Shown piece after piece: positions 1,581 to 24,829 of a stretch of 31,135 nt of DNA. The notes beneath the pieces are model-generated. The model was not told the origin of the DNA. It saw only the letters and a program-made list of their open reading frames with translations, and did no database searches. Position numbers and translations under genes: made by a program. The stretch spans positions 1-31,135 of the forward strand of contig SKSP01000150.1 in NCBI GenBank assembly GCA_007122945.1, in the 5' to 3' direction. The stretch comes from Ilumatobacteraceae bacterium. GTDB taxonomy: Bacteria > Actinomycetota > Acidimicrobiia > Acidimicrobiales > Ilumatobacteraceae. Within the stretch, counting starts at the first letter, position 1; each line of letters starts with the position of its first letter.

Positions 1581-2768
1581 TCAGTCCCCGAGGACCCCGG
1601 TCGGGCTGAAGCGGACGGGCATCGACTCGTACCCGCACACGAAGTTCGCCGTCCGCAACGGCGGTTCGGCCTCGTCGACCAGCTCGATGTCGGGGAGACG
1701 ATCGAGCAGGCGGTCGAAGACGACCATCAGCTCGAGCCGGGCGAGGGCCTGGCCGAGGCAGAAGTGCGGTCCGAACCCGAAGGCGACGTGGTCGTTCGGC
1801 GACCGGCGGATGTCGAACCGCATCGGGTCGTCGAAGACGTCCTCGTCGCGGTTCGCGGACGGGTAGAGCAACAGGGCCTGGTCGCCGGCTCTCAGGGTCC
1901 GGCCGCGCAGCTCGACGTCGGCGGTGACGGTGCGCGCCATGTTCTTGATCGGGGTGACCCAGCGGAGCATCTCCTCGACGGCACCCGGCAGGAGTGAACG
2001 GTCGGCGCGCACGTCCTCCCAGTTCTGCCGGTCGACCAACATCTGGTAGAGGCCACCGGTGATCACATGCCGAGTGGTCTCGTCGCCGCCGATCAGGATG
2101 AGCAGGGTCTCGTAGTGCAGGGCGTCCTCGCTGAGGCGGTCGCCGTTGATCTCGGCGTGGACGAGCACGCTGACCAGGTCGTCGCGGGGGTTCTCCCGCC
2201 GATCGGCGATCACCTCGGCGATGTAGGCGCTGTAGCCGAACGCTGCCTCGGCCTGCGCGTCGAGGAGCGCGGGATCGGTGTTGCCCTGCGCCTTCAACAT
2301 GTCGTCGGACCACTTGAGGAGCGTGGGGTGATCGGCTTCGTCGAACCCGAGGGCGTCTCCGATCAAGATGAGCGGCAGCCACGCGGCGATGTCCCACACG
2401 AAGTCGCACTCACCGCGCTCGCACACCCGATCGATCAAGCGATCGGCGACCGAGCGGATGTGGGGCTCCTGCTCTCGGATCCGCTTCGGGGTGAACCCTC
2501 GGTTGACGAGCTTGCGCCGCTGCCAGTGCTCGGGGTCGTCCATGTCGATCATCATCGGGATCGCACCGGAGGTCGGCCGGATGCCGCTGGCGTTCGAGAA
2601 CGTCGGTACCTGGGTGGACGCCCACTTCACGTCGTCGTACTTCGTGATCGCCCACAGACCGCTGCGTTCGTCGTAGTGGACGGGGTCGTTGGCCCGCAGC
2701 CAGGCGAGCTCCGCGTGGGGGTCGCGTCCCCACCACACACCGCTCAGCAGGTCGATCTCGGGTGCCAT
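1581..2768 (-). CDS. cyp142: cytochrome P450, CYP142-like (steroid side-chain oxidase family)
   Basis: ATG at 2768 with a GAGGAGG RBS. I-helix LIGGDETTRH, ExxR (EEMLRW) and heme motif FGFGPHFCLG. The segments 'MMIDMDDP', 'DRVCERGECDFV' and 'ETLLILIGGDETTRH' closely match CYP142 as I recall it. The subfamily needs an alignment to confirm. Confidence 0.85.
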   Translation of the reverse strand: MAPEIDLLSGVWWGRDPHAELAWLRANDPVHYDERSGLWAITKYDDVKWASTQVPTFSNASGIRPTSGAIPMMIDMDDPEHWQRRKLVNRGFTPKRIREQEPHIRSVADRLIDRVCERGECDFVWDIAAWLPLILIGDALGFDEADHPTLLKWSDDMLKAQGNTDPALLDAQAEAAFGYSAYIAEVIADRRENPRDDLVSVLVHAEINGDRLSEDALHYETLLILIGGDETTRHVITGGLYQMLVDRQNWEDVRADRSLLPGAVEEMLRWVTPIKNMARTVTADVELRGRTLRAGDQALLLYPSANRDEDVFDDPMRFDIRRSPNDHVAFGFGPHFCLGQALARLELMVVFDRLLDRLPDIELVDEAEPPLRTANFVCGYESMPVRFSPTGVLGD

Positions 2769-2882
2769 GGGGGTCCTCCTCATACTCGTCTGCTCTCGTG
2801 TGCAGCGCTGGCTGAGCCGCGACACCTGGGACCTGTCCTAGCAGCTCCGGTCGGGCGCCACCGATCCGTACGTTGCGCCCGC

Positions 2883-6492: not shown

Positions 6493-6532
6493 TTGTCCGA
6501 GATCATCTGTGCGTTTACTATATGCAAGCAGA
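6493..6532 (+). promoter_or_regulatory. sigma70-type promoter of the ABC operon (TTGTCC-N17-TACTAT) overlapped by a putative MarR operator
   Basis: TTGTCC at 6493-6498 and TACTAT at 6516-6521, 17-nt spacer. 6496-6513 matches the reverse complement of 16697-16714 at 17 of 18 positions. Confidence 0.7.
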
Positions 6533-6557
6533 CGAATTTCGGGGAGGACGACGTCGC

Positions 6558-7373
6558 ATGCTCGTGAGCGAGGAGCCAGGACCGACGGTGGGCACGGGAC
6601 CGCCGATCCCACCGCCCGGCCCGGACGCGTCGGGTGTCACCGTCTCGGTGCGCGGCGTGACCCGACAGTACCGGTCCGGGTTCGTCGCGCTCCAGGGCGC
6701 CGACCTGGAGATCGCGGCCGGGGAGATGGTCGCCCTCGTCGGTCCGTCGGGGTGCGGCAAGTCGACGCTCCTCAAGATCGTCGCCGGACTGCTCTCGGCG
6801 ACCGACGGCGAGGTGGCGTTCGGCGGCCCCGGAGGTCGGCCGGAGATCGGCTACGTGTTCCAGGACCCGCACCTGCTCCCGTGGCGCCGGACGCTCCGCA
6901 ACGTCGAGCTGTTCCTCGAGGTCGACGGCATGAAGAAGGCGGAGCGGCGCCGCCGAGCGCGCGAGGCGCTCGCCCTCGTCGGCCTGGCCGATTTCGAGGA
7001 CGCCTACCCGGCCCAGCTCTCGGGCGGCATGAAGATGCGCGTGAGCCTCGCCCGAACGCTCGCCACGGATCCGCAGCTGATGCTGTTCGACGAGCCGTTC
7101 GCCGCGGTCGACGAGATCACCCGCCACCGTCTCAACAACGACCTGATCCGACTGCAGCGCGAACGTCACGTCACCGGCGTGTTCGTCACCCACTCGATCA
7201 CCGAGTCGGTCTTCCTCGCGGATCGCGTCGCGGTCATGTCACCCAGCCCGGGCCGGATCGTGGACGTCGTCGACGTCCCGTTCGGCGACGAGCGGCCGCC
7301 GTCGTTGCGGACCACGCCCGAGTTCGCCGCCGTCGCCCGGCAGATCGGCGAGATCATGGGGGTCGAGGCGTGA
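6558..7373 (+). CDS. ABC transporter ATP-binding protein, NitT/TauT family
   Basis: GGAGG RBS at 6543-6547 and ATG at 6558. Walker A GPSGCGKS, Q-loop VFQD, signature LSGG, Walker B LMLFDEPF and H-loop VTHS. Confidence 0.95.
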   Translation: MLVSEEPGPTVGTGPPIPPPGPDASGVTVSVRGVTRQYRSGFVALQGADLEIAAGEMVALVGPSGCGKSTLLKIVAGLLSATDGEVAFGGPGGRPEIGYVFQDPHLLPWRRTLRNVELFLEVDGMKKAERRRRAREALALVGLADFEDAYPAQLSGGMKMRVSLARTLATDPQLMLFDEPFAAVDEITRHRLNNDLIRLQRERHVTGVFVTHSITESVFLADRVAVMSPSPGRIVDVVDVPFGDERPPSLRTTPEFAAVARQIGEIMGVEA

Positions 7374-8170
7374 ACCGGGTGCTCGGGGTGGCGCGGGCCG
7401 TGGTGCCGCCGTTGCTCGTCTTCGTCGTGTTGATGTTCGTGTGGTGGGCGGCCGTGCGGGCGCTGCAACCGCAGGCGTACATCTTCCCGTCGCCCGGTCG
7501 GGTGTGGGAGGCCGCCGTCAACGACTCCGACCGGCTGTGGACCGGTTTCCGCAACACGCTCTACGCGTCGGTGGTCGGCTTCCTCGCCGCCACCGCGGTC
7601 GGCGTCCTCGCTGCCCTGCTGCTCAGCCTCTCCCGCACGATCGAGCGGGCCTTCTTCCCGTGGGCGGTGCTGCTGCAGACCGTGCCGGCCGTGGCCGTCG
7701 CCCCGCTGTTCGTGCTGTGGTTCGGCCCCGGCCGCGGCTCGGTGATGCTCGTCGCGTTCACGATCACGCTGTTCCCGATCCTGGCCAACAGCCTCGCCGG
7801 CCTGCGCTCGGCCGACGCCGCGCTGGTCGACCTGATCCGCCTGCGCGGCCGTCGTCCGAACTCGCTGTTCACCTTCACCAAGATCCGCATCCCGAGCTCG
7901 TTGCCGTACCTGTTCACCGGGCTGCGGATCTCGGCCGGCCTCGCCGTGATCGGCGCGATCGTCGGCGAGATCGTCGTCGGCCGGGGCGGCCCGGAAGCCG
8001 GCCTGGGGTACTGGGTCACGTTCGGCACCACCCAGCTCCGGACCGACTTCGTGTTCGCGGCGATCGCGGTCTCCTCCGCGCTCGGCATCACGTTCTTCCT
8101 CGCCGTGTCGGCGATCGGCAACCGGGTCCTGCGCAACTGGCACGACTCGGCCCGCGACGCGGAGACCTGA
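7370..8170 (+). CDS. ABC transporter permease, NitT/TauT family
   Basis: GTGA overlap with the ATPase stop. Multiple hydrophobic segments plus 'QTVPAVAVAPLFVLWFG' and the EAA-like loop followed by 'KIRIPSSLPYLFTGLRIS'. Confidence 0.92.
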   Translation: MNRVLGVARAVVPPLLVFVVLMFVWWAAVRALQPQAYIFPSPGRVWEAAVNDSDRLWTGFRNTLYASVVGFLAATAVGVLAALLLSLSRTIERAFFPWAVLLQTVPAVAVAPLFVLWFGPGRGSVMLVAFTITLFPILANSLAGLRSADAALVDLIRLRGRRPNSLFTFTKIRIPSSLPYLFTGLRISAGLAVIGAIVGEIVVGRGGPEAGLGYWVTFGTTQLRTDFVFAAIAVSSALGITFFLAVSAIGNRVLRNWHDSARDAET

Positions 8171-8246
8171 TCCCCCTACCAGCCCAGTCCAACCACCCAT
8201 GTCCCGGACCATCCGGTCCCACACCACATCCCAGGAGCACGCAGCG

Positions 8247-9395
8247 ATGAACATCCGACGCACCCGACGACGCATCGTCCCCCTCCTCGCCGCGGCCGCC
8301 CTCGTGGTCGCCGCGTGCGGCGGCGACGATGATGCCGCCACCCCGGAGGCTCCCGACGAGCCGGCCGCCGAGCCGACCGACGACGAGCCGACCGACGACG
8401 AGCCGACCGACGACGAGCCGGCCGACGACGAGCCGACCGACGAGGAGCCGGCCGCCGACGAGCCGGCCACGACGGACGCCCCGCCCCCCGCCACCGGCGA
8501 CATGACCGTCCTCGACGAGCTGACCTCGGTGTCGGTGCAGTCGGACTGGTTCCCGTCGACCGACCACGCGGCGCTGTACGCCGCCGACTTCCTCGGGTTC
8601 TTCGCCGAGCGGAACCTCGAGGTCGAGATCCGCGAGGGCGGGCCTGGTATCCGGGCGGCCAACGACGTCGTCACCGGCAACGTCACGTTCGGCATGGCGA
8701 TCCCCGAGAACATCGTGCTCGCCGCGTCGGAAGGCGCCGAGCTGACCACGTTCTTCGCCACCTACCAGGTGTCGCCGATCGGCATCATGGTGCACGCCGA
8801 GTCGGGCATCACCGGCCTCGACGACCTGACCGAGGTGCAGATGTTCCCGGGCCAGGTGTTCTGGGAGGTCCTCAAGGCCGAGAGCGATCTCGAGGTCGAC
8901 GAGATCGCCTACGACGGCTCGCAGGCCGCGTGGCTCGAGAACAAGGAGTGGGGCGTCCAGGCGTTCGCCACGACGAACCCGAACGTGGCGCGCGAGAACG
9001 GCGCCGATCCGGTGATGCTGACCGCCACCGAGCTCGGGTTCCGCTCGTACGCGACCACGATCTTCACCTCCGACGAGTACGTCGAGGAGAACCCCGACGT
9101 GGTCCGGGCGTTCGCCGAGGCGTTGCAGGCCGGCCTCGAGGCGTTCCTCGACGACCCCGACCCGGTGATCGCCTACATCAACGAGGTGTACCCCGACTTC
9201 GAGATCTCCGTCGGCGAGGCCTCGTTCCCGGTGATGGCCGAGCTCGTCGTCAGCGACACGACCGACGAGCTCGGGCTCGGCGCGATGAGCGGAGACGTCT
9301 GGGAGGACGTCGCGAGCCGCATGCTCGCGGCCGACATCATCCGCACCGAGGTCGACGCCGACTCGCTCTGGACGAACGAGTTCCTCGTCGGCTGA
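8247..9395 (+). CDS. ABC substrate-binding lipoprotein, NMT1/THI5-like
   Basis: AGGAG RBS, basic N-region, lipobox VVAA-C and an acidic linker. Then 'QSDWFPSTDHAALYAADFLGFFAERNLEVEIREGG', a ThiY/NMT1-like N-terminal pattern. Confidence 0.85.
   Translation: MNIRRTRRRIVPLLAAAALVVAACGGDDDAATPEAPDEPAAEPTDDEPTDDEPTDDEPADDEPTDEEPAADEPATTDAPPPATGDMTVLDELTSVSVQSDWFPSTDHAALYAADFLGFFAERNLEVEIREGGPGIRAANDVVTGNVTFGMAIPENIVLAASEGAELTTFFATYQVSPIGIMVHAESGITGLDDLTEVQMFPGQVFWEVLKAESDLEVDEIAYDGSQAAWLENKEWGVQAFATTNPNVARENGADPVMLTATELGFRSYATTIFTSDEYVEENPDVVRAFAEALQAGLEAFLDDPDPVIAYINEVYPDFEISVGEASFPVMAELVVSDTTDELGLGAMSGDVWEDVASRMLAADIIRTEVDADSLWTNEFLVG
8370..8459 (+). repeat. in-frame 15-bp tandem repeat (6 units, GAGCCGRCCGMCGAS) encoding an EPTDD-type linker
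   Basis: GAGCCGACCGACGAC x3 followed by three variant units, read directly from the sequence. Confidence 0.9.
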
Positions 9396-9425: not shown

Positions 9426-9478
9426 CCGGCAGCCGGTGGTCCCGCCCCTGGATCCGGGGTGGGCCACCGGCTTGCCGG
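9426..9478 (+). terminator. long GC-rich stem-loop downstream of the SBP gene (terminator or mRNA-stabilising hairpin)
   Basis: CCGGCA-GCCGGTGG-TCCCGCCCC [TGGATCC] GGGGTGGG-CCACCGGC-T-TGCCGG. There is no U-tract. Confidence 0.6.
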
Positions 9479-9511
9479 ATACAACATGCGCGCTTATGAT
9501 CTGCGGGCAGA
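9472..9511 (+). promoter_or_regulatory. sigma70-type promoter of the Rieske-LLM-deaminase operon (TTGCCG-N17-TATGAT) overlapped by a putative MarR operator
   Basis: TTGCCG at 9472-9477 and TATGAT at 9495-9500, 17-nt spacer. 9478-9511 matches 16671-16704 at 25 of 34 positions by eye. A GAAGGAGG RBS follows. Confidence 0.7.
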
Positions 9512-9535
9512 GGAACGAAGGAGGAAGAATCAGAC

Positions 9536-10627
9536 ATGCTGATCAGTGAGGTCCCGGCGTTCCGCGAGTACTGGTACCCGATCGGTTACAGCGGCGACAT
9601 CGCCGACGAGCCGACACCGTTCAAGATCTTCGGTGAGGAGTACGTCGCCTGGCGCGGTGGCTCCGGTGCGGTGCACGCCGCCCGCGACGAGTGCCCGCAC
9701 CGCCATGCCCGCCTCTCGCAGGGGTGGCTCGCCGACGGCTGCCTGACCTGCCCGTACCACGGGTGGAAGTTCGGCGAGGACGGCCACTGCGTGGAGATCC
9801 CCGCAGCGGATCCCGAGCTGCCGATCCCGCCGCGCGCCCACGTCGACAAGATCCTCGCCGCTGAGCGGTACGGGCTGGTGTGGGTGTGCGTGGGCATGCC
9901 CCGCGCCGGCATCCCCGACCTCGTCGAGGCCGACGACCCCGGCTACACCCTCATCCACGAGATGATGGACGTGTGGACGGCGTCCGCGCCGCGCATCGTC
10001 GACAACGCCCTCGACGTCAGCCACGTCGCCTGGGTGCACCGCAACTCGGTCGGTTCGTCGGCCAACCCCCGTCTCGAGGCCGGCCCGGTCGAGCGCGACG
10101 GGCAGACGTTCCGCTTCTCGGTCACGTTGATCTCCCAGGTCAACGAGCAGCAGAAGCGCAACACCGGCATCACCGCCGACACGACCCGGCGCACCACGCA
10201 CGCCGAGCTCGTGCAGCCGCTCGTGTTCCGGGGCCGGATGGTCTACGAGGAGAACGGGCTCGAGCACGTGCTCTACAAGACGTGCACCCCGATCGATGAC
10301 GAGCACACGCTGTTCTGCCAGTTCATCGCCCGCAACGACGACCCACCGCCCGAGAAGTGGGACAGCATCACCGCCGTCGACCGCCAGGTCCAGGCCGAGG
10401 ACCGGGCGCTGCTCGAGAACGTCAACCCGAACTTCCCGGTCGAGATCTCGACCGAGCTGCACACCAAGGCCGATCGGATGACGCTCGAGTACCGGCGCAT
10501 CCTCGCCGAGCTGGCCGCCGAGGCGCCCGGTGTCGCTCCCGACTCGGCGTGGGCCAAACCGTTCCGACGCGACCCGGTGCGCGATGCGCCGGTGCCGTCC
10601 GGCGCGACGTCCGACGGAGACGCGTGA
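9536..10627 (+). CDS. Rieske non-heme iron oxygenase, VanA/NdmA-like (O- or N-demethylase type)
   Basis: Rieske motif CPHR-x17-CPYH, mononuclear Fe motif DNALDVSHVAWVH, 'ERYGLVWV' and C-terminal 'AEDRALLE...ADRMTLEYRR'. Confidence 0.9.
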   Translation: MLISEVPAFREYWYPIGYSGDIADEPTPFKIFGEEYVAWRGGSGAVHAARDECPHRHARLSQGWLADGCLTCPYHGWKFGEDGHCVEIPAADPELPIPPRAHVDKILAAERYGLVWVCVGMPRAGIPDLVEADDPGYTLIHEMMDVWTASAPRIVDNALDVSHVAWVHRNSVGSSANPRLEAGPVERDGQTFRFSVTLISQVNEQQKRNTGITADTTRRTTHAELVQPLVFRGRMVYEENGLEHVLYKTCTPIDDEHTLFCQFIARNDDPPPEKWDSITAVDRQVQAEDRALLENVNPNFPVEISTELHTKADRMTLEYRRILAELAAEAPGVAPDSAWAKPFRRDPVRDAPVPSGATSDGDA

Positions 10628-10628
10628 C

Positions 10629-11588
10629 GTGAAGATCGGCATCCAGACACCACCGGAGCACACCGACTTCGCCGCGCTCGAAGCGGTGTGGGACGCGATC
10701 GACGAGCTCGGGTTCGCCGCCGCGTTCACGTTCGACCACCTCGTGCCGTTGAACCCCGGCGCCCGCCCGGGTGGGCCCGGCGGCGTCCCCGACGGGCCGC
10801 AGTTCGAGGGGTGGGCGACGCTGTGCGCGCTGGCGGCCCGCACCACCAACGTCCAGGTCGGCACGCTCGTCTCCGGGGTCACCTACCGTCACCCGGCGAT
10901 GCTCGCCAAGATGGCGGTGACCCTCGACCACATCACGCGCGGCCGGGCGATCCTCGGTCTCGGCGCCGCCTGGCACGAGGCGGAGCACCAGATGTACGGC
11001 ATCGACTTCCCGGGCGTCGGCGAGCGGATGGGTCGGCTCGACGAGGCGCTCGAGGTGATCGGCCGGCTCTGCCGCGCCGACCGCGACGACACCGTCGACT
11101 TCGACGGCCGCTACTACCAGCTCCAGGGCGCACCGTTCGACCCCAAGCCGGTGCGCCCCGAGGGGCTCCCGATCCTGGTCGGCGGCAGCGGCCCGCGGCT
11201 GAAGGGCATCGCAACGCGCCATGCCACGATCTTCAACAGCTTCGCCGCACCGTGGGAGTGGCCCGAGGTCAATGCCGACCTCGACGAGCGGCTTACCGCG
11301 GCCGGTCGCGGACCGGGCGACCTCATGCGTACGGCGTTCGTGTTCTGCGAGCTCTCCGGCGATCCCACGGCCGAGGACGCCCTCGTCGCCCACTTCCAGA
11401 AGAACCGTGGCGGCACGGACGAGGAGGTGCGCCGACGGGTCGTCGTCGGCTCGCCCGACCAGATGGCCGCTGTCCTGAACGGCTACGCCGACGCCGGCAT
11501 GGAGATGGCGATCATGAACCTGCGTCCGCCCTACCCCCTCGAGGGGCTGGAGCGCTTCGCGCGCGAGGTGCTCCCCGCCCTTGGGTAG
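10629..11588 (+). CDS. LLM-class oxidoreductase, probably F420-dependent (Rv1855c-like)
   Basis: GTG 1 nt after the Rieske stop. Motifs 'FDHL', 'EGWATLCALAART', 'GTLVSGVTYRHPAMLAKMAVTLDHITRGRAILGLGAAW' and 'PILVGGSG'. The F420 cofactor is inferred from the subfamily. Confidence 0.85.
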   Translation: MKIGIQTPPEHTDFAALEAVWDAIDELGFAAAFTFDHLVPLNPGARPGGPGGVPDGPQFEGWATLCALAARTTNVQVGTLVSGVTYRHPAMLAKMAVTLDHITRGRAILGLGAAWHEAEHQMYGIDFPGVGERMGRLDEALEVIGRLCRADRDDTVDFDGRYYQLQGAPFDPKPVRPEGLPILVGGSGPRLKGIATRHATIFNSFAAPWEWPEVNADLDERLTAAGRGPGDLMRTAFVFCELSGDPTAEDALVAHFQKNRGGTDEEVRRRVVVGSPDQMAAVLNGYADAGMEMAIMNLRPPYPLEGLERFAREVLPALG

Positions 11589-12933
11589 ATCGAAGCTCCC
11601 GGTCGATCTGCTCGTCAGGGGCGGCACCGTCGTCGCCGTCGACGCCGACGACACCGTCGTGCGCGCCGATGTCGCGGTGGCCGACGGCCGCATCGCCGGC
11701 ATCGGCCGGGACCTCGACGTGGAGCCCGAGGTCGTCCTCGATGCCACCGACGCCGCGGTCGTCCCCGGGTTCGTCAACGCCCACATGCACGAGACGCTCG
11801 ACCGGGGCGTGTTCGAGGACCTCCCGTTCGTCGAGTGGCTGGAGGAGTACGCGCTCCCGAAGGACATGGCGTACGAGCCGCGGCACATGCGCGCCGCGGC
11901 GATGCTCAACCAGGCCGAGATGATCGCCGGCGGGACGACGTCGTTCATCGACATCTTCCGCCATCCCCACGAGGTCGCCGCGGTCGCCGAGCGGTCGGGA
12001 CTGCGCGCGACGATCAGCCCCCAGATCGTCGACACGCCCGCAGGCGCGGGCGAGACGGTCGCCGACGCGGTCGGTTTCGTCGAGCACTGGCACCGCCGGA
12101 TCCCCGGCCGGATCCGAGCCTGGTTCGGGCCGCACGCGCTCTACTCGTGCACCCCCGAGACGTACCGCTGCATCCGCGAGCTCACCTGCGTGTACGACGT
12201 CGGCATCCACACCCACCTCGCGGAGAGCCGGGCGGAGGCGGGCATGATCGCCGAGCAGTCCGGTGGGCTCAGCCCGGTTCGATGGCTCGACGAGTTGGTC
12301 GGCCTGGGCTCCGATGTCGTGGCGGCGCACTGCGTCGAGCTGTCCGACGACGATCTCGCCCTGCTCGTCGAGCGCGGGGTCGGCATCGCCCACTGCCCGA
12401 CCTCGAACGCCAAGCTCGGCAACGGCATCGCCCGGATCCCCGAGATGCTCGCCGCGGGTGCCGTCGTCGGGCTCGGGACCGACTCGAACATGACCAACAA
12501 CGACCTCGACATGTTCGAGGAGATGCGACTCGCCGCGCTCGTCCAGAAGCAGCGCACCGGGGATCCGACGGTCCTGCCGAGCGGGCAGGTCCTGCGGATG
12601 GCGACGATGGGCTCGGCGCGGGTGCTGGGCGTCGACCACCGGGTCGGCAGCATCGAGGTCGGCAAGGCGGCCGATCTGGCGGTGGTCGACCTGCGGGGCG
12701 CGCACGCCCGCCCGATCGTCCGGCACGGCCGCACGAACATCGTCGAGCAGCTCGTGTGGGCGTGCTCGGCGCGCGACGTCCGCCACACCGTCGTCGACGG
12801 GCGGGTGCTGATGCAGGACCGGCAGCTGCTCACGCTCGACGTGGAGGAGGTCGTCGAGCTCGCCGACCGCGAGATCGTGGATCTCCTTCGCTCGGCCGGC
12901 GTGCTCGAGAAGCGCTTCGGCCCCGCCACCTGA
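11581..12933 (+). CDS. amidohydrolase-superfamily deaminase, MtaD/Tm0936-like
   Basis: Metal ligands PGFVNAHMH, HTHLAE, AAHCV and GLGTD. Also 'EDLPFVEWL', 'GPHALYSC' and 'HCPTSNAKLGNG'. The TTG start overlaps the upstream stop, so the exact start is uncertain. Confidence 0.88.
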   Translation: MGRSKLPVDLLVRGGTVVAVDADDTVVRADVAVADGRIAGIGRDLDVEPEVVLDATDAAVVPGFVNAHMHETLDRGVFEDLPFVEWLEEYALPKDMAYEPRHMRAAAMLNQAEMIAGGTTSFIDIFRHPHEVAAVAERSGLRATISPQIVDTPAGAGETVADAVGFVEHWHRRIPGRIRAWFGPHALYSCTPETYRCIRELTCVYDVGIHTHLAESRAEAGMIAEQSGGLSPVRWLDELVGLGSDVVAAHCVELSDDDLALLVERGVGIAHCPTSNAKLGNGIARIPEMLAAGAVVGLGTDSNMTNNDLDMFEEMRLAALVQKQRTGDPTVLPSGQVLRMATMGSARVLGVDHRVGSIEVGKAADLAVVDLRGAHARPIVRHGRTNIVEQLVWACSARDVRHTVVDGRVLMQDRQLLTLDVEEVVELADREIVDLLRSAGVLEKRFGPAT

Positions 12934-13012: not shown

Positions 13013-15292
13013 TCAGGTGAGCAGGTCGTCCGGGCGGACCGGGACGCGGTGCACCGGTGCGCCGGTCGCGGTCCGGATCGCAGCGGCGATCGCGGCCGTG
13101 GAGGAGAGTGCCGAGGGTTCGCCGACGCCCTTCAGTCCGAACGGCGCGTCGGGGTCGGGTTCCTCGATCAACGCGGCCTCGACCGGCGCGACGTCGGCCG
13201 CCGTGGGGATCAGGTAGTCCGTGAACGTGTTGTTGACGACGTGGCCGTCGCGGGTCTCGAGGTGCTCGTTGAGGGCGAGCCCGATGCCCTGGGTGATCCC
13301 GCCGAGGATCTGCCCGCGCACCTCGCGTGGGTTGAGGGCCCGCCCGACGTCCTGGGCCGTGGCGACCTGGGCGACCCGACACAGCCCGAGCTCGACGTCG
13401 ACGTCGACGATCGCCCGGTGGGCGACGAACATCCACGACACGTGCACGTCACCCTGCCCGGTCGTCGGATCGCCGCGATGGGTCCGCGGCGGCCGGTACT
13501 CGGTGGTGGCGACGATCGGCTCGTCACCGACCAGCTCGTCGAGGCTGATCAGCTCGTCGCCGACGAGCGCGCCGTCGGGGACGAGCTCGACGTCGTCGGG
13601 AGTCACGCCGGCGCGTCCGGCCGCGTCGGTGAGCAGCCGCGCCGCCACCTCGGCGGCCGCCTGACGAACCGCCGCGCCCGACATCCACGTCTGACGACTC
13701 GCCGACGACGAACCCGAGTACCCGGCCTCCGTGGTGGCCGGCTCGACCTCGACCGGCATGCCGCCGAGCGCCGCCGAGGCGATCTGGGCGAGCGCGCTCA
13801 CGATCCCCTGACCGCACTCGGCGGCGGCCGAACGGATGGTCGCGCCGTTGGCGGTGACCGTCACCGTGGCGACCGATCGCTCGGTCACACCCTCCCCGTA
13901 GAGATGGTTCTTCACCCCGAGCGCGAAACCGACGCCACGGCGGACGTGCTCGCCGTCGGTGGTGAGCCCGGTCCCGCCCGGCAGGTCGTAGGGATGGGTC
14001 GGGTCACCGGGCAGGGGTGCCGGTTCCGGCAGGGCGGTGCACCGGTCGATCAGCTCGCGCAGCGGTGCCGAGGGTCCGACCCGCTGGCCCGACGTGGGGA
14101 ACTCGTCGCCGGGTGCGAGGACGTTCCGGCGGCGCAGCTCGATCGGGTCGATCCCGAGCTCGGCCGCCAGGAGATCGACCGTCGACTCGATGCCGAAGCA
14201 GGCCTGGACGGCGCCGAACCCCCGCATCGCCCCGCACACCGGGTTGTTGGTGCGTGCCGCTCGGCCGCGGACCCGGACGACGGGGACGCGATACGGGCCG
14301 GCGGCGAAGTAGCACGCGCTGCCGAGCACCGGCCCGGACGTGCTCGCGTACGCGCCACCGTCGAGCACGATGTCGGCCTCGACGAAGCGGAACGTGCCGT
14401 CGCGGTCGGCGCCCATCCGGTAGCGCAACGTCGCCGGGTGACGCTTGGGATGGGCGAGGAACGACTCGGCGCGCCGGTAGGTGGTCTTCACCGGTCGGCC
14501 CGTGGCCAGGGCGGCGAGCGCGAGGTGGACCTGACAGGTGATGTCCTCCCGTCCGCCGAACGCACCGCCGATCCCGGACATCACGAGGCGGACCTGCTCC
14601 TCCTCGAGGCCGAGCACCGAGGCGATCTGCTCCTGGTCGGTGTGCAGGTCCTGCGTGGCGAGCACGAGCGTGACCCCACCGTCCACGTCCGGCATCGCGA
14701 GGGCGGACTCGGGGCCGAGGAAGGCCTGGTCCTGGCGGCCGGTCGACCACGTGCCCTCGACGATCACGTCGGCCGTCAGTGGCCCGTCGCCGCGCTCGAG
14801 GCACAGCTCGCGGATCACGTTGCCGTCGGGATGCACGCGCTGGCTGTCGGGCGTGAGCGCGAGGTCGGGGTCCGTCAGCGGCTCGAGCGTCTCCCACGTG
14901 ACCTCGACGAGGTCGGCCGCGCGCCAGGCCAGCTCCTGGCTGCGGGCCACCACGAAGGCGACCGGCTCGCCGACGTACCGCGCCACCCCGTCGACGAAGG
15001 GCGGCGCGTCGGCGACGATGTGCCCGGTGCGCGCCCGGGTCGGGACGTCGTCGAGCGTGAGGATCCGCACGACGCCGGGTGTCGACAGTGCCGCCGAGAT
15101 GCCGAGGTGCACGAGTCGGGCGTGTGGGTGCGGGCTGCGGACCGTCGCTCCGAAGAGCATGCCCGCGACCGAGACGTCGTTGGAGAACTCGAACGAGCCG
15201 TCGATCTTGGGTGGGACGTCCGGTCGTGGAACCGACCGACCGATGGGTGACGCACCCGTCGCGGGTGCGTCGACCAGGCTCTCGACGCTCAT
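13013..15292 (-). CDS. xanthine dehydrogenase-family molybdopterin-binding (large) subunit
   Basis: ATGA overlap with the small-subunit stop. Moco motifs GGAFGGRE, AMRGFG, ECGQG and SSSASRQT, plus C-terminal KGVGE carrying the catalytic Glu. Confidence 0.93.
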   Translation of the reverse strand: MSVESLVDAPATGASPIGRSVPRPDVPPKIDGSFEFSNDVSVAGMLFGATVRSPHPHARLVHLGISAALSTPGVVRILTLDDVPTRARTGHIVADAPPFVDGVARYVGEPVAFVVARSQELAWRAADLVEVTWETLEPLTDPDLALTPDSQRVHPDGNVIRELCLERGDGPLTADVIVEGTWSTGRQDQAFLGPESALAMPDVDGGVTLVLATQDLHTDQEQIASVLGLEEEQVRLVMSGIGGAFGGREDITCQVHLALAALATGRPVKTTYRRAESFLAHPKRHPATLRYRMGADRDGTFRFVEADIVLDGGAYASTSGPVLGSACYFAAGPYRVPVVRVRGRAARTNNPVCGAMRGFGAVQACFGIESTVDLLAAELGIDPIELRRRNVLAPGDEFPTSGQRVGPSAPLRELIDRCTALPEPAPLPGDPTHPYDLPGGTGLTTDGEHVRRGVGFALGVKNHLYGEGVTERSVATVTVTANGATIRSAAAECGQGIVSALAQIASAALGGMPVEVEPATTEAGYSGSSSASRQTWMSGAAVRQAAAEVAARLLTDAAGRAGVTPDDVELVPDGALVGDELISLDELVGDEPIVATTEYRPPRTHRGDPTTGQGDVHVSWMFVAHRAIVDVDVELGLCRVAQVATAQDVGRALNPREVRGQILGGITQGIGLALNEHLETRDGHVVNNTFTDYLIPTAADVAPVEAALIEEPDPDAPFGLKGVGEPSALSSTAAIAAAIRTATGAPVHRVPVRPDDLLT

Positions 15293-15786
15293 CCGGTGCG
15301 CTCCCGACCCGACGCATCGCGCCGGGCCTCGTCCACCCGGAGCACCGCAGCGATGATCCCCTCGTAGCCGGTGCAGCGGCAGAGGTTGCCGGCGAGGGAC
15401 TCGCGCACGCCGTGCTCCGTGAGGGGTTCCGGGTCGGCGAGAGCGGCCTCGGCCGCCACGACGATGCCCGGGGTGCAGAACCCGCACTGGACGGCGCCGT
15501 GTTCGGCGAGCGCGTCGGCGAGGTCAGCCCGTACGAAGCTGCGCACCGTGCGGATGACGCTGCCGTGGCAGACGAGAGCGGGGACGAGACACGAGCACTC
15601 CACGCGTCCGTCGATCTCGACCGAGCACGAGCCGCACTCACCCTGCTCGCACGCACCGGTCGTCGCCGTGGCACCGGCGTCGCGCAACGCCCGGAGCAGA
15701 CTGGTCGCCGGTGTCGCCTCCAGGGTGGTGTCCCTCCCGTCGAGCGTGATGGCCACCTCGAGGGCCGACGGCATGGCGTCGCTCAC
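15289..15786 (-). CDS. xanthine dehydrogenase-family 2Fe-2S (small) subunit
   Basis: CEQGECGSC...SC and QCGFCTPG...GNLCRCTGY motifs. Start is GTG 15786 (GTGA overlap) or ATG 15774. Confidence 0.93.
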   Translation of the reverse strand: MSDAMPSALEVAITLDGRDTTLEATPATSLLRALRDAGATATTGACEQGECGSCSVEIDGRVECSCLVPALVCHGSVIRTVRSFVRADLADALAEHGAVQCGFCTPGIVVAAEAALADPEPLTEHGVRESLAGNLCRCTGYEGIIAAVLRVDEARRDASGRERTG

Positions 15787-16649
15787 GCCGCCACCTCCCC
15801 GGCGGTACGCCAGAGTCGGGCGTGCGTCCGGCGGGCGAGGACCCCGAGCGCGTGGCGGCGGTAGGTCGCGCTGGCGCGGGCGTCGTCGATCGGCGACGCG
15901 CCCCGGACGACCTCGGCGGCGAACGCGTCCGCTGCACCGGGGTCGAGCAGGGCGGGCTCCGCGTCGTGGACGCGCCGGACCGTCGGCGCCGCCGAACCGA
16001 TAGCGACCCGCGCGACCCCGCTCGCCGGGTCGAGCCGAGCTGCGATCGAGCACACGCTGATCACCATCGCGTTGCGGGTCCCAACCTTGGCGAAGGCGTC
16101 GAAACCGCCGAGGGCGTGGAGGTGGACCGCGGTGATCAGCTCGTCCGGGCGGCGGACCGTCCGCTTCGGCCCGGTGGCGAACTCCTCGAGCGGGACCCGA
16201 CGCACGCCGTCGCAGGACGCCAGTTCGACGTGCGCGTCGCAGCACAGCAGGGGCGGGACGGCGTCCGCCGCCGGCGACGCCGTGGCGAGGTTGCCGCCGA
16301 GCGTGCCTGCCCGTCGGATCTGCGGGCTCCCGACCGTCCGAGCGGCCGCTGCGAGCGACGGCACCGAGTCGGCGAGCAGCGCCTCGATCTCGGCGAACGT
16401 GATGCCGGCGCCGAGCACCAGCGAGTGCTCGTCGGCGACGATGCGGCCGAGCTCGGCAACCCGCCGTAGCGACAGCCATCCGGCAACGTTGGTGCGACCG
16501 TCGTTCACGCCCACCATGGCGTCGGTTCCCCCGTTCACGACGTAGAGTTCCGGACGCTCGGCCAACAGGATCGTCGCTTCGTGGCGGGTCGTCGGCGTGG
16601 CGAACGGCGGGAGGATGGGCTCGTCCGACGGCGGGGGCATCGAGCTCAT
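15783..16649 (-). CDS. xanthine dehydrogenase-family FAD-binding (medium) subunit
   Basis: Motifs 'NGGTD', 'GSPQIRRAGTLGGNLATASPAAD', 'AKVGTRNAMVIS' and 'SPIDDARASATYRRH'. Confidence 0.92.
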   Translation of the reverse strand: MSSMPPPSDEPILPPFATPTTRHEATILLAERPELYVVNGGTDAMVGVNDGRTNVAGWLSLRRVAELGRIVADEHSLVLGAGITFAEIEALLADSVPSLAAAARTVGSPQIRRAGTLGGNLATASPAADAVPPLLCCDAHVELASCDGVRRVPLEEFATGPKRTVRRPDELITAVHLHALGGFDAFAKVGTRNAMVISVCSIAARLDPASGVARVAIGSAAPTVRRVHDAEPALLDPGAADAFAAEVVRGASPIDDARASATYRRHALGVLARRTHARLWRTAGEVAA

Positions 16650-16670: not shown

Positions 16671-16714
16671 GATACAATCAGTGCGAACATGATCTGCGCA
16701 CAGATTATCTCGGA
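16671..16714. promoter_or_regulatory. putative MarR operator: two overlapping imperfect palindromes in the divergent XDH/MarR intergenic region
   Basis: ATGATCTG-CGCA-CAGATTAT at 16689-16708. A second related site, ACAATCAGTGCGAACATGAT, lies at 16674-16693 (offset 15 nt). Confidence 0.7.
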
Positions 16715-16769: not shown

Positions 16770-17324
16770 ATGGCACGTCGACCGTCGGAATCCGGTGGCC
16801 GCGAGCTCGGGACGTCGTTCCCGGCGTCCTCCGCGTGGGACAAATTGGGGTTCCTGCTGTGGCACGCCACGCTGGAGTGGCAGCGTCAGGTCTCGGCGGC
16901 GCTCAAGTCGCTCGACCTCACCCACGTGCAGTTCGTCCTGCTGGCGGGCACGAACTGGCTCGAGCAGCGCTCCGGGCCGCCGTCGCAGCGCGAGTTGGCC
17001 GACCACTCCGGGACCGACGCGATGATGACCTCCCAGGTGGTGCGGGCCCTCGAGCGGGCCGGTCTGGTGCGGCGCCTCCCCGACCCCGACGACGCCCGGG
17101 TGAAGCGCGTGTCCACGACGCCCCAGGGTGCCGACCTCGCACGCCGGGCCGTCGCGCTCGTCGAGGACGTCGACCGGCGGGTGTTCGGCGAGGTCGACGA
17201 TCTCGACCGGCTCCGCATCGCCCTGCGGTCCGTCGCCGGGCGCGACGAGTTCGGCCGTCCCTTGGCCGGCACCGCTGACGCGCCAGGGGCTGGTGCCGAA
17301 CGGGCCGGTGCGACTCGAACATGA
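16770..17324 (+). CDS. MarR-family transcriptional regulator
   Basis: 'LDLTHVQFVLL', HTH 'SQRELADHSGTDAMMTSQVVRALERAGLVRR' and wing 'DDARVKRVSTTPQG'. Divergent from the XDH operon. Confidence 0.92.
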   Translation: MARRPSESGGRELGTSFPASSAWDKLGFLLWHATLEWQRQVSAALKSLDLTHVQFVLLAGTNWLEQRSGPPSQRELADHSGTDAMMTSQVVRALERAGLVRRLPDPDDARVKRVSTTPQGADLARRAVALVEDVDRRVFGEVDDLDRLRIALRSVAGRDEFGRPLAGTADAPGAGAERAGATRT

Positions 17325-18322
17325 GTGGTCAGTCGGGACGCCCGGTACCGGTGATCGTGGACACCGACGGCGGTGTCGACGACGCCGCAGCACTGTGGTT
17401 CGCGGCGACCGCACCCGATGTCGAGCTCGTCGCGGTGACGGTCGTGCACGGCAACGTCGACGTCGGCGTCGCGGCGGCCAACGTCTGTCGGGTCCTCGAG
17501 GCGGCGGGGCGTCCGGACGTCCCCGTCGTCGTCGGTGAGCCCGCGCCGCTCGGTCCGGTCCCCGTGCTGCGGCGCGCCGACTTCATCCACGGGACGGACG
17601 GGCTCGGCGAGACGCACCGGCCGCCGGCGGCGTTCGGCCCGACCGGAACGATCGTGGCCGACGCCTGGGCCGGCGCCGTGACCGACCGGCCCGACGAGAT
17701 CACGCTCGTCACGCTCGGGCCGCTCTCGAACCCGGCGTCGGTGTTCCGTCGGGACCCCGACGTGGCCACCGGATTCCGCCGCCTCGTGATCATGGGCGGC
17801 GTCGTCGGTGGGCCGGGCAACGCGCTGCCGCTCGCCGAGGCGAACATCGCCCACGATCCGGTCGCGGCCGAGGAGGTCGTCACGGCGCAGTGGGCGCGAC
17901 CACCGCTGATGGTCGGTCTCGACGTGACCCACCGGGCGACGTTCACCGCCGCCGAGGTGGCCGTGCTCGAGCGCCGGGAGACCCCGGCCGCCCGCTTCCT
18001 CGCCGAACCGCTCGCCTTCTACGGTCGCTCCGCCGGCACGTTCTGCGCCCCGGGGGAGTTCCCGTGCCACGACCTGCTCGCCGTGCTCGCAGCGGTGCGC
18101 GACGTCGTCGATGGACCCGTGCTGCCGCTCGCCGTGCAGACCGCGCCCGGCCCGGCGTGGGGCGCGACCGTGGCGGACCGCCGCGTCCCGTTCTTCGAGC
18201 GCGCCGGCGCCGGCTCCCAGCAGGGGATGCTGGAGGGTTTCGCCCCCTGGCAGATCGCCCTCACCGTCGACCCCCCCACCTTCCGCCATGCGGTTCTGAC
18301 AATGTTCTCGGTCGCTGACTGA
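17321..18322 (+). CDS. nucleoside hydrolase (IUNH family)
   Basis: N-terminal DTDGGVDD Ca-binding motif, 'HGTDGLG', 'LGPLSN', 'IMGG', 'AEANIAHDP', 'VGLDVT' and 'HDLLAV'. ATGA overlap with the marR stop. Confidence 0.92.
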   Translation: MSGQSGRPVPVIVDTDGGVDDAAALWFAATAPDVELVAVTVVHGNVDVGVAAANVCRVLEAAGRPDVPVVVGEPAPLGPVPVLRRADFIHGTDGLGETHRPPAAFGPTGTIVADAWAGAVTDRPDEITLVTLGPLSNPASVFRRDPDVATGFRRLVIMGGVVGGPGNALPLAEANIAHDPVAAEEVVTAQWARPPLMVGLDVTHRATFTAAEVAVLERRETPAARFLAEPLAFYGRSAGTFCAPGEFPCHDLLAVLAAVRDVVDGPVLPLAVQTAPGPAWGATVADRRVPFFERAGAGSQQGMLEGFAPWQIALTVDPPTFRHAVLTMFSVAD

Positions 18323-18398
18323 TCGTTCTCCACCACGGAATCCGACGAAGGGGAGGACACGGATCGAGACGCGCACCCCTTCGTCATGATCGGGGCAC

Positions 18399-18443
18399 CT
18401 GACATCACGACCACTGACATCACGAACACTGACATCCTGAACA
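18399..18443 (+). repeat. three direct 15-bp repeats (CTGACATCACGACCA / CTGACATCACGAACA / CTGACATCCTGAACA) immediately upstream of an RBS
   Basis: Read directly from the sequence, followed by GGAGGA at 18445-18450. Confidence 0.85.
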
Positions 18444-18457
18444 CGGAGGAGCTGGCC

Positions 18458-18859
18458 ATGAAGGTGCTGATCGCGACGAACGAGACCCAGGGCGACCACC
18501 CGGGTGACTACGCCTGGACGGTCGACGGCGAGTTGGTCACCCCGGTGGCGGCGGAGTGCTGCTCGCCGGGGACGTGCGGCTGCGGGCGTGGGTTCCCGGG
18601 CCTCGCCAGCGGCAAGGCCACCACGACGGCGATCGTGGTCGACCGCCCGGAGCTGACCGAGGACGACCTGCGCGACGCCGTCTGGGACTCCCTGGAGCGC
18701 TGCGGCTGGGCCGATCACCTCGACGACGACGAGTTCGGCGAACTGGTCGACGAGCACCTCGACTGCATCGCGGCGGTGTGCGAGAACTTTCCGGTCGGCA
18801 CCGTCGTCAGCCGGTGGGGGAGCAAGGTGTACGCCCGCCCGGCGTCGGCCGCCGCCTGA
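18458..18859 (+). CDS. small conserved-looking actinobacterial hypothetical protein with a C-x(4-5)-CGCGR motif (DUF7715-like, from recall)
   Basis: GGAGGA RBS and ATG at 18458. Sequence 'MKVLIATNETQG...DGELV...ECCSPGTCGCGRGFPGLASGKATTTA'. Confidence 0.65.
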   Translation: MKVLIATNETQGDHPGDYAWTVDGELVTPVAAECCSPGTCGCGRGFPGLASGKATTTAIVVDRPELTEDDLRDAVWDSLERCGWADHLDDDEFGELVDEHLDCIAAVCENFPVGTVVSRWGSKVYARPASAAA

Positions 18860-22751: not shown

Positions 22752-23573
22752 ATGAAGGCCGATTTCGAGTCCATCTACACCGCTGCCGACCCGCGCCCGT
22801 ACTTCACCGAGCTGGCCCCGCTCGACTACCAGATCCCGGCCCACGCCGGTCGGGTGTTCGGCCGGTTCGCCGACCACCTGCACGCGCGCGGCCTCCCGGT
22901 CGTTCGGATCGCCGACCTGTGCTGCTCGTACGGCGTCAACGCCACCGTGATGAAGCACCGACGTGACTTCGGCGAGATCGTCGCCCACTACACCGACCCG
23001 GCCGTCGCCGGGCTCGACGACACCGAGATGGTCGCCCTCGACCGGGCCTACTACGCCGAGACCGCGGCGGCCGCGCCGTGGATCGAGGTCATCGGGATGG
23101 ATTCCGCCGCGCCCGCGGTCGCGTACGCCGAACGGGTCGGGATGATCGACGTCGGCCTCGCCGCCGACCTCGAGTCGGACGAGCCCACCGCAGACGTCCT
23201 CGACGCGCTGCGCGGTGTCTCGCTCGTCGCCGTCAGCGGCGGCATCGGGTACATCTCCGAGCGCACCATCGGCCGGGTCCTCGACGCGGCGTCACCGGAT
23301 GCCTGGTTCACCGCCCTGTGCCTGCGATGGGTCGACGCCACCGCGGTCGTGGCGGACCTCGAGCGGCGCGGGCTCGTCGTCGAACGCCTCGACGGCGTCA
23401 CGTTCCGCCAGCGCCGCTTCGCGGACGACACCGAGCGCGACTTCGCCCGCAGCGAGACCGACCGACTCGGCCTCGACCAGCCCCCCGACGACGGCTACCA
23501 CCACAGCGACCTCTACCTCGCCCGCCCGGCGGACGACGTCTCCCCGCCGCTCGGTCAGCTCGTCAGCTCGTAA
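22752..23573 (+). CDS. uncharacterised class I SAM-dependent methyltransferase-like protein
   Basis: GGAGG RBS. A motif-I-like 'IADLCCSYGVNA', a motif-II-like 'VIGMDSAAPAVAYA' and 'ADLE' and 'GGIGYI' segments. Function unknown. Confidence 0.6.
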   Translation: MKADFESIYTAADPRPYFTELAPLDYQIPAHAGRVFGRFADHLHARGLPVVRIADLCCSYGVNATVMKHRRDFGEIVAHYTDPAVAGLDDTEMVALDRAYYAETAAAAPWIEVIGMDSAAPAVAYAERVGMIDVGLAADLESDEPTADVLDALRGVSLVAVSGGIGYISERTIGRVLDAASPDAWFTALCLRWVDATAVVADLERRGLVVERLDGVTFRQRRFADDTERDFARSETDRLGLDQPPDDGYHHSDLYLARPADDVSPPLGQLVSS

Positions 23574-24829
23574 CGGACCGGGAGACGCTTCAGGCCACCG
23601 ACGAAGAGGGTCTTCATCAGCTCGGGCTTCCCGTCGAGCTCGATCGAGCGCAGCCGAGGGACCAGCTCGGTGAGCAGCGCGGTGATCTCCTTGCGGGCGA
23701 GCATCGCACCGAGGCAGTAGTGGACCCCGAAGCCGAACGCGAGGTGCTTGTTCGGCTTGCGGCCCACGTCGAACCGGAACGGGTCGGGGTAGACGTCCTC
23801 GTCGCGGTTCGCCGACGGGTACGACATCAACACGGCGTCGCCCGGCTCGAACCGGTGGCCGCGCAGCTCGTACGGCACGGTCGCGTTGCGCATGAAGTGC
23901 TTGACGGGGGTCACCCAGCGGATGATCTCGTCGACCGCGGTCGGGATCAGCGACGGGTCCTGTCGCAGCCGTTCGAGCTGGTCTGGGTTCTCGATCAGTG
24001 CCTGCATCCCGCCCGCCATCGCCGAGGCCGTCGTGTCGTGCCCCGCCGTCGCCACGATCACGTAGTACGAGATCGTCTCCATCAGGCCGATCGGTCGCGG
24101 TGCGCCGTGCTCGTCGGGGAGGGTGGCGTTGGCGATCGTCGACGCGAGGTCGTCGGTCGGGTTCGCCTGCCGATCCTCGGTCAGCGCCGTGAAGTACACG
24201 AAGAAGTCGTTGATCACGGCGACGAGATCCTCCATCGACGTCCCCCGGCCGAGCTCGTCGTCGGCGGCACCGAAGAGCTCCTGGGTGAGCTGCAGCATGC
24301 GCGGGTAGTCCGACTCGGGGAGGCCGAGGATCGCGAGGATGACCTGCAGCGGGTACTGCATCGCGACGTCGCGGGCGAAGTCGCAGCGCCCGTCCATCGC
24401 CGCCATCTTGTCGACGCTCTCGCGGGCGAGCTCGGCGAGGCGGGCGTCCAGCTTGGCGAGGTTCTTCGGGAGGAACCAGTCCGCCGTGACCTGCCGGTAG
24501 GCGCGGTGGTCGGGCTCGTCCATGTGGATCAACGTGCGGAGCAGGTCGCCCTGTTCCTCGCGTCGGCGATCGGCCTCGAGGTTCGACAGGACGGGCTTGG
24601 GGGCGTTGTGCCACTGCTCGTGGTGGAGCTCCACCTCGAGGACGTCGGCGTGCTTGGTGAGCACGTGGAACGGGGCGAAGTCGGGGTGCTCCACGAGGTG
24701 GATCGGGTCCTCCCGGCGGAGGACGGCGCACGCCGCGTCGAAGTACGCCTCGTCGGCGTAGGCCGCCGGGGTGACGAACACCAGCCCGGCCTCCTCGGCG
24801 GTCATGTCGGTGACGGTCTCGGCGCTCAT
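23555..24829 (-). CDS. cytochrome P450, CYP108 (P450terp)-like
   Basis: I-helix ATAGHDTT, ExxR 'DEIIRWVTPVKHFMR', 'SYPSANRDE' and heme motif FGFGVHYCLG. The C-terminal half resembles CYP108 from recall. Start could also be 24805. Confidence 0.88.
   Translation of the reverse strand: MSAETVTDMTAEEAGLVFVTPAAYADEAYFDAACAVLRREDPIHLVEHPDFAPFHVLTKHADVLEVELHHEQWHNAPKPVLSNLEADRRREEQGDLLRTLIHMDEPDHRAYRQVTADWFLPKNLAKLDARLAELARESVDKMAAMDGRCDFARDVAMQYPLQVILAILGLPESDYPRMLQLTQELFGAADDELGRGTSMEDLVAVINDFFVYFTALTEDRQANPTDDLASTIANATLPDEHGAPRPIGLMETISYYVIVATAGHDTTASAMAGGMQALIENPDQLERLRQDPSLIPTAVDEIIRWVTPVKHFMRNATVPYELRGHRFEPGDAVLMSYPSANRDEDVYPDPFRFDVGRKPNKHLAFGFGVHYCLGAMLARKEITALLTELVPRLRSIELDGKPELMKTLFVGGLKRLPVRYELTS

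Follow-up and report, generated by a model that had tools for sequence, protein, structure and literature searches.

The stretch of DNA analyzed here, hereafter the window, is a 31,135-nucleotide contig (C183; GenBank SKSP01000150.1) of an Ilumatobacteraceae metagenome-assembled genome (MAG), and the gene of interest encodes a Rieske oxygenase and is followed almost immediately by a gene for a luciferase-like (LLM) oxidoreductase. The MAG is 88% complete and comprises 571 contigs (3.96-Mb assembly). The window has a GC content of ~71%, and its top protein matches were to Ilumatobacter and Acidimicrobiales MAGs. All plausible open reading frames were scanned with Pfam, and NCBIfam models were also used (Table 1). 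The forward strand carries the genes for an ABC transporter ATPase, a permease, an NMT1-type protein, the Rieske oxygenase, the LLM enzyme and an amidohydrolase; three xanthine dehydrogenase (XDH) genes follow on the reverse strand, and genes for a MarR regulator, a nucleoside hydrolase and a DUF7715 protein lie beyond them, again on the forward strand.

Table 1 Features of the Rieske-LLM gene cluster in the window (PWM, position weight matrix).
Feature	Position	Strand	Evidence or remark
Operator-like site, 35 bp	6499..6533		Upstream of ABC importer genes; PWM score 49.0
ABC transporter ATPase	6559..7373	+	Pfam ABC_tran 110.6 bits
Putative ABC permease	7441..8250	+	Assigned from position; counterpart in locus L015 syntenic, 52% identical
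NMT1/THI5-like substrate-binding protein of importer	8199..9395	+	Pfam NMT1 99.1 bits
Operator-like site	9478..9512		Upstream of Rieske gene; PWM score 48.3
VanA-type (alpha-only) Rieske non-heme iron monooxygenase, 363 aa	9536..10627	+	Pfam Rieske and VanA_C
Luciferase-like (LLM) oxidoreductase, probably F420-dependent, 319 aa	10629..11588	+	Pfam Bac_luciferase 146.7 bits
TRZ/ATZ-family amidohydrolase (MtaD / 5'-deoxyadenosine-deaminase-like)	11581..12933	+	Amidohydro_1 206.9 bits
XDH-family molybdopterin subunit	13013..15292 (start approximate)	-	MoCoBD_1/2, Ald_Xan_dh_C
XDH [2Fe-2S] subunit	15289..15789 (start approximate)	-	Fer2_2 80.1 bits, Fer2 32.6 bits
XDH FAD subunit	15783..16649	-	FAD_binding_5 145.1 bits, CO_deh_flav_C
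Operator-like site	16671..16705		XDH/MarR divergent region; PWM score 50.4 forward, 33.5 reverse
MarR-family regulator	16770..17324	+	MarR 45.2 bits
Inosine-uridine-type nucleoside hydrolase	17321..18322	+	IU_nuc_hydro 228.4 bits
DUF7715 protein, cluster membership uncertain	18386..18859	+	Pfam DUF7715 129.4 bits

The Rieske gene has an ATG start with a GGAGG ~9 nt upstream, and its product matched the Pfam Rieske profile with 79.2 bits and VanA_C with 84.9 bits (cut-off 23.5; profile positions 1–193 of 193 covered). In an alignment of 15 orthologues the [2Fe-2S] ligands (C53-P-H55 and C72-x-Y-H75) and the mononuclear-iron motif (D156-N-A-L-D160-x2-H163-x4-H168, with E288-D289) were invariant, and the bridging Asp together with the 2-His-1-carboxylate motif aligned with the equivalent motif of the saxitoxin hydroxylase SxtDIOX. 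The Rieske stop codon (TGA, 10625–10627) and the GTG start of the LLM gene at 10629 are separated by a single base. Neither a NAD_binding_1/FAD_binding_6 reductase nor a free ferredoxin was found in the window, where the XDH Fer2/Fer2_2 and FAD_binding_5 subunits were the sole redox-partner-like genes. An earlier note on this DNA had described the iron-binding motifs as intact, the reductase and ferredoxin as absent from the window and the LLM gene as starting 1 nt after the oxygenase gene, and all of this held.

The solved relatives, SxtDIOX (131.7 bits) and SxtT (126 bits; E ~1e-37 to 1e-35), aligned over the full length of the oxygenase, as did NdmA (111.9 bits, E 2.8e-31) and NdmB (88.2 bits, E 4.3e-24). 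ESM Atlas look-ups returned generic names only. Among annotated plasmid records, from which the HpxD references were taken, several top matches (32–33% identity) were named by PGAP as the molybdenum cofactor-independent xanthine hydroxylase subunit HpxD, and the PGAP-annotated Pantoea HpxD was 33% identical over 323 residues (152 bits). The likeness to NdmA proposed in the earlier note is acceptable as a remote one: the C-terminal segments are present and the match is full length, with HpxD and SxtT/SxtDIOX no more distant. In a tree of 52 Rieske sequences (NdmA, SxtT and VanA not among them), the window family formed one clade (16 orthologues plus a near relative; support 100) and the HpxD proteins another (SH-aLRT 100), both inside a larger clade (support 93); several actinobacterial paralogue groups lay closer to the former than the HpxD clade did. 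Judged from these alignments and the tree, the window oxygenase resembles HpxD and NdmA but is a member of neither family.

In the LLM protein the Bac_luciferase match begins at residue 1 of the GTG start. Its best NCBIfam model was TIGR03560 (F420_Rv1855c; 203.1 bits, below the cut-off of 231.4), the next four best models were likewise F420-type subfamilies, and the best FMN-type model scored 68.7 bits. The genome has a CofD gene (TIGR01819, contig C180; 308.9 bits, cut-off 257.45), from which the host is probably able to make F420, CofD being the only F420 biosynthesis gene searched for. The F420 dependence proposed in the earlier note is probable on these scores, although the protein stays under the TIGR03560 cut-off; we know of no TIGR03560 family member with a known substrate. 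The LLM protein formed its own orthologue group (50–92% identity), whose members were mostly from Acidimicrobiia and unclassified Actinomycetota. Two homologue searches also yielded at least 14 more Rieske/LLM match pairs, apparently from common sources, which suggests that the pairing is common. In Ca. Poriferisodalis an LLM homologue with 57% identity (L211, 6551–14596) lies among TIR, ThsB_TIR, Nmad2, DCD, MazG_C and HMUDK_hel genes, a setting that looks like a defence or nucleotide-modification island and not like a purine cluster.

The three 35-bp operator-like sites were aligned into a PWM, and a scan of the whole assembly with it returned no further site, i.e., the sites are confined to this cluster. 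A loose palindrome search made earlier gave noise and was uninformative. No xanthine (NMT1) riboswitch turned up in Rfam scans, either of the window or of seven loci from Proteobacteria that carry distant Rieske homologues.

We compared 20 orthologous loci, whose Rieske proteins were 57–82% identical to that of the window and whose neighboring genes were mapped by tblastn. Most matches from pattern scans of genome and metagenome contigs were distant homologues, with only ~13 true orthologous loci among them, and a phylum-wide sample of 401 genomes held paralogues only (34–49% identity), unusable for context statistics. The LLM gene is directly 3' of the Rieske gene, with a 1–36 nt gap or an overlap, in seven loci (the window, L015, L016, L121, L122, L201 and L210); the last is from the cultured Dermatobacter hominis and has the order Rieske-LLM-PNP_UDP_1-MarR. 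At an eighth locus (L018) it lies inside the cluster without adjoining the Rieske gene. The amidohydrolase gene comes after the LLM gene in the LLM loci, D. hominis excepted. The LLM gene was not found near the oxygenase gene in L014, L017, L105, L107 and L200, and an Ilumatobacter MAG (G401) has an 81%-identical Rieske orthologue adjoining a nucleoside hydrolase gene and no LLM orthologue. LLM linkage is scattered over the Rieske tree, with the LLM-linked L201 sister to the reductase-linked clade at modest divergence. From this scatter and from G401 we conclude that the LLM enzyme is not obligatory for the oxygenase.

A gene for a VanB/HpxE-like reductase (NAD_binding_1 with a C-terminal Fer2) accompanied the oxygenase gene in 4 of the 20 loci, i.e., those of Actinomadura (L009), Kribbella (L010), Dactylosporangium (L106) and a metagenome contig (L202), where the oxygenase orthologue is 58–61% identical to that of the window and the reductase gene lies ~2–8 kb away. 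No reductase was found within 10 kb in the other 16, and those of named source are Acidimicrobiia. An aldo-keto reductase (AKR) gene was absent from all eight LLM loci and present in eight loci without the LLM gene, three of which also hold the reductase; seven encode a conserved YghZ-like AKR (mutually 57–67% identical; 420.8 bits to PRK09912), and the AKR gene of L202 overlaps the Rieske start and is of a different subfamily. A DUF1152 gene was seen in two reductase-type clusters (L202, 12097–13083, between hydrolase and reductase; L010, 18675–19661). Two loci have four VanA_C-type Rieske genes in a row (L017, 5294–11044; L123, 5290–11044), one orthologue and three paralogues (36–40% identity), with no reductase within 10 kb. 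In L026 (10001–12348) the Rieske orthologue and the amidohydrolase were each matched as two adjacent pieces, which suggests frameshifts or MAG assembly errors.

The setting of the oxygenase is firmly that of nucleoside and purine catabolism, with the nucleoside hydrolase, MarR and deaminase genes recurring across the orthologous loci. In 11 of the 20 loci the Rieske orthologue has a MarR gene within 10 kb, directly adjoining in most of them, and a nucleoside hydrolase gene is beside or near the orthologue in nine loci, with a PNP_UDP_1 phosphorylase instead in D. hominis. The assignment of this phosphorylase as a methylthioadenosine phosphorylase was rejected, as it scores as a uridine phosphorylase/DeoD type. 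XDH genes adjoin the oxygenase cluster in the window, L015, L016, L018, L121, L105 and L026, and no XDH was found within 10 kb of the Rieske-LLM operons of L201 and D. hominis. The Actinomadura order is deaminase-Rieske-MarR-nucleoside hydrolase-reductase-uricase-OHCU decarboxylase-HIU hydrolase-allantoinase. The Dactylosporangium cluster has the reductase and XDH together, with uricase, allantoinase and allantoicase genes nearby. In the window, the amidohydrolase scored 360.7 bits against PRK07228, under the model cut-off, and its nearest structures included a 4f0r chain (named 5-methylthioadenosine/S-adenosylhomocysteine deaminase) and the unnamed amidohydrolases 4gbd, 4dyk and 4dzh. The molybdopterin subunit scored 738 bits against the pucD model (cut-off 783.65), with the match beginning at residue 82 of the long open reading frame. 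The ABC ATPase gene is kept upstream of the Rieske gene in L015 (75% identity), the permease candidate had no match in the Pfam scan, and no DUF7715 gene was seen at the other orthologous loci compared.

Given that a reductase stands beside orthologues in four loci, we regard the family as ordinary two-component oxygenases, and because related bacteria keep this standard reductase beside the same enzyme, the one missing from the window is most likely encoded elsewhere in the genome. We therefore favor, with a probability of roughly 0.6, a conventional alpha-only (VanA/HpxD/NdmA-type) Rieske monooxygenase in a MarR-linked purine cluster, with its reductase encoded elsewhere and with the LLM enzyme not acting as donor. 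In Actinomycetota the genes of Rieske oxygenases and P450s are frequently not linked to those of their redox partners, so a missing reductase is ordinary in itself. Partner unlinking and plasticity are the rule in this family and lineage, as several cases illustrate. The complete D. hominis genome (CP085840.1, with the Rieske gene at ~992 kb) has two unlinked FAD_6-NAD_1-Fer2 (VanB-type) reductases, encoded near 786 kb and 3.24 Mb, a further genome (G403) has one, and no Fer2-fused NAD_binding_1 reductase was found in G401 (5.5 Mb, five VanA_C genes) or in G402 (6.0 Mb, seven VanA_C genes), which has the same cluster at 82% identity. Two cytochrome P450 genes of the window (1581–2825 and 23555–24829, both on the reverse strand) adjoin neither a ferredoxin nor a ferredoxin reductase gene, the same orphan situation as that of the Rieske gene. 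HpxD-like oxygenases of Proteobacteria have a VanB-type partner, a rubredoxin and FAD oxidoreductase, or no adjacent partner: in Caballeronia (L216, 7905–10319) and Paraburkholderia (L217, 5905–8328) the HpxD-like Rieske gene is followed by genes for a rubredoxin and an FAD-dependent oxidoreductase, not a VanB-type reductase, and on the P. putida plasmid pKF715A (L220, 5932–10645) it adjoins hpxO (urate hydroxylase) and genes for a BMP-family binding protein and a 2-oxoglutarate oxygenase, with no adjacent reductase.

For the electron path, the substrate and the LLM reaction we infer the following scheme. NAD(P)H would supply the electrons, which the unlinked reductase would hand to the Rieske [2Fe-2S] cluster and this in turn to the mononuclear iron. 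The reductase is perhaps VanB-type as in relatives; other possibilities, each encoded in the genome, are a BenC-type reductase and a ferredoxin reductase/ferredoxin pair of generic kind. A purine base or nucleoside would then be hydroxylated, or oxidatively dealkylated, by oxygen activated at the iron. The LLM enzyme, whose gene is translationally coupled to the oxygenase gene at a distance of one base, would not be the electron donor and most likely uses F420 for hydride transfer on an intermediate or co-product that is a carbonyl or an alcohol, a role that the YghZ-like AKR appears to fill in other lineages; the deaminase, nucleoside hydrolase and XDH may then carry the purine toward urate. 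The complementary distribution of the LLM enzyme and the aldehyde-reductase-type AKR, the latter co-occurring with the reductase, suggests such substrate-level hydride chemistry, and because an LLM or AKR partner recurs and XDH coexists, we lean toward hydroxylation or dealkylation of a substituent (NdmA/SxtT-like) over ring hydroxylation (HpxD-like).

Several observations weigh against this reading. No VanB-type reductase was found in the window's MAG, itself only 88% complete. The MAG encodes four NAD_binding_1 proteins, two of membrane ferric-reductase type and two of Fer2-FAD_6-NAD_1 (BenC) type, one of the latter in a soluble di-iron monooxygenase cluster and the other adjoining an AurF-like gene; candidate donors, which count in favor of the reading, are a ferredoxin reductase (FdR; Pyr_redox_2 and Reductase_C) on contig C98 and the Fer2-FAD_6-NAD_1 reductases on C301 and C332, and the Actinomadura reductase had no close homologue in the MAG (best E 5.6e-5). 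As the PWM returned no further site in the assembly, no reductase shares the operator-like motif of the cluster. LLM and reductase genes never occurred in one locus (eight versus four loci), a split that is confounded with taxonomy and that replacement of the reductase by the LLM enzyme would predict as well, and a physical complex would be equally consistent with the tight coupling of the Rieske and LLM genes in seven loci. The alternation of AKR and LLM genes is drawn from related genomes and short contigs and takes in the AKR of the other subfamily in L202, and the oxygenase family lies outside the HpxD clade. The earlier note had offered an unlinked reductase, the XDH subunits or the LLM/F420 system as donors, or alternatively an LLM enzyme acting on a separate intermediate. 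The first of these donors is favored by the four linked loci and the unlinked reductases of D. hominis, the other two are disfavored for the reasons given below, and a separate intermediate is favored by the LLM/AKR alternation. A reductase elsewhere under the operator of the cluster, which it had also raised, was not found, and the routine presence of a reductase in orthologous clusters was seen in the non-Acidimicrobiia subset and nowhere else within 10 kb.

The best-surviving alternative, which we consider unlikely yet worth keeping in view, is that the enzyme is a true HpxD-type, molybdenum-independent hydroxylase of the hypoxanthine/xanthine ring and not a dealkylating or side-chain enzyme. 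The best annotated relatives are HpxD proteins, the Actinomadura Rieske-reductase pair is directly upstream of uricase and the genes for subsequent steps, the surrounding 10 kb being free of XDH, and in Klebsiella hpxDE substitutes for pucABCDE, i.e., replaces XDH (PMC13751858). The purine-catabolic context of HpxD is also found here, in the XDH, deaminase and nucleoside hydrolase of the window and in the uricase and allantoinase beside orthologues. However, the window family falls outside the HpxD clade, with several actinobacterial paralogue groups nearer, the full XDH in the window and in many relatives would make the enzyme redundant, and the recurrent LLM enzyme or aldehyde-reductase-type AKR has no role in simple ring hydroxylation.

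It is improbable that the unassembled ~12% of the genome encodes a dedicated reductase orthologous to the Actinomycetes-type (HpxE-like) one. The incompleteness and fragmentation of the MAG and the unlinked VanB-type reductases of G403 and D. hominis would allow for it, but G401 and G402, besides having no Fer2-fused NAD_binding_1 protein, gave no match to such a reductase better than E 3e-4.

We hold it very unlikely that in Acidimicrobiia the LLM enzyme replaces the reductase, with F420H2 reducing the Rieske oxygenase through it, directly or by way of an unrecognised mediator, instead of an NAD(P)H-dependent VanB-type reductase. This would account for the close spacing of the two genes, for the mutual exclusion of LLM and reductase genes and for the failure to find a VanB-type reductase in G000, G401 and G402, and the genome probably makes F420. 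F420, however, carries hydride obligatorily, and no one-electron cofactor with which to feed a [2Fe-2S] cluster is present in F420 enzymes of the LLM fold. Moreover, G401 keeps the oxygenase with no LLM orthologue, five loci have it with no LLM gene nearby, D. hominis has unlinked VanB-type reductases in addition to its LLM gene, the LLM-linked L201 is only modestly diverged from its reductase-linked sister clade, and elsewhere it is the YghZ-like AKR, not a reductase, that takes the place of the LLM enzyme. That the XDH FAD and Fe-S subunits, which carry two [2Fe-2S] clusters and FAD and whose genes adjoin the oxygenase cluster in seven loci, pass electrons from purine oxidation straight to the oxygenase is hardly credible, given the Rieske-LLM operons of L201 and D. 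hominis with no XDH nearby, the Dactylosporangium cluster with XDH plus a dedicated reductase, the Actinomadura and Kribbella loci with a reductase and no XDH found nearby, and the lack of any precedent known to us for XDH subunits feeding a Rieske oxygenase.

Returning to a conventional monooxygenase served by an unlinked reductase, what deserves notice is a well-conserved oxygenase family (57–82% identity) of Acidimicrobiia and several Actinomycetes genera, set in nucleoside/purine clusters and partnered with an F420-type LLM enzyme in one set of loci and a YghZ-like AKR in another. The family points to an undescribed oxidative step in the breakdown of purines or modified nucleosides. Such a step could be relevant to how Acidimicrobiia scavenge nucleosides; many of their sequences in this analysis are from MAGs or metagenomes. 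D. hominis is a cultured and fully sequenced representative of the family in which this step is testable. If the LLM enzyme were the donor after all, the system would rank as the first Rieske oxygenase to be driven by F420 and as a new type of two-component oxygenase.

Among known systems, HpxD/HpxE is the molybdenum-cofactor-independent xanthine hydroxylase of Klebsiella and its relatives (de la Riva 2008, cited in PMC7373994 and PMC13751858). It shares with the window an alpha-only Rieske/VanA_C oxygenase in purine catabolism (33% identity for HpxD, and 35% between the Actinomadura reductase and the PDR/VanB oxidoreductase adjoining Pantoea hpxD), whereas the window family is a separate clade that is coupled to the LLM gene, has no adjacent reductase in Acidimicrobiia and coexists with XDH. 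NdmA and NdmB, which work with NdmD (PDB 6ICK, 6ICL), have the same fold and ligand motifs and act on purine substrates, but the similarity is remote, the window has no NdmD-type reductase and no NdmC or NdmE, and their setting is caffeine degradation whereas here it is one of nucleoside hydrolase, deaminase and XDH. The highest-scoring solved relatives are the saxitoxin hydroxylases SxtT and SxtDIOX (PDB 6WN3, 6WNC), Rieske monooxygenases of the alpha-only type whose reaction is C-H hydroxylation of a guanidino N-heterocycle. Theirs is a biosynthetic role in cyanobacteria, whereas the context in the window is catabolic. For the LLM enzyme the nearest model is the Rv1855c-type TIGR03560, to which it is linked by the best score, a typical length of ~320 aa and CofD in the genome, and from which its score below the family cut-off sets it apart. 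Finally, the proteobacterial purine-oxidation regulon under the xanthine riboswitch (NMT1 motif) comprises an NMT1/TauA-type ABC binding protein, Rieske and 2-oxoglutarate dioxygenases and guanine/8-oxoguanine-type amidohydrolases (PMC7373994), a gene kit shared with the window cluster, which differs in having a MarR regulator and operator-like repeats in place of the riboswitch and in adding the LLM enzyme and XDH.

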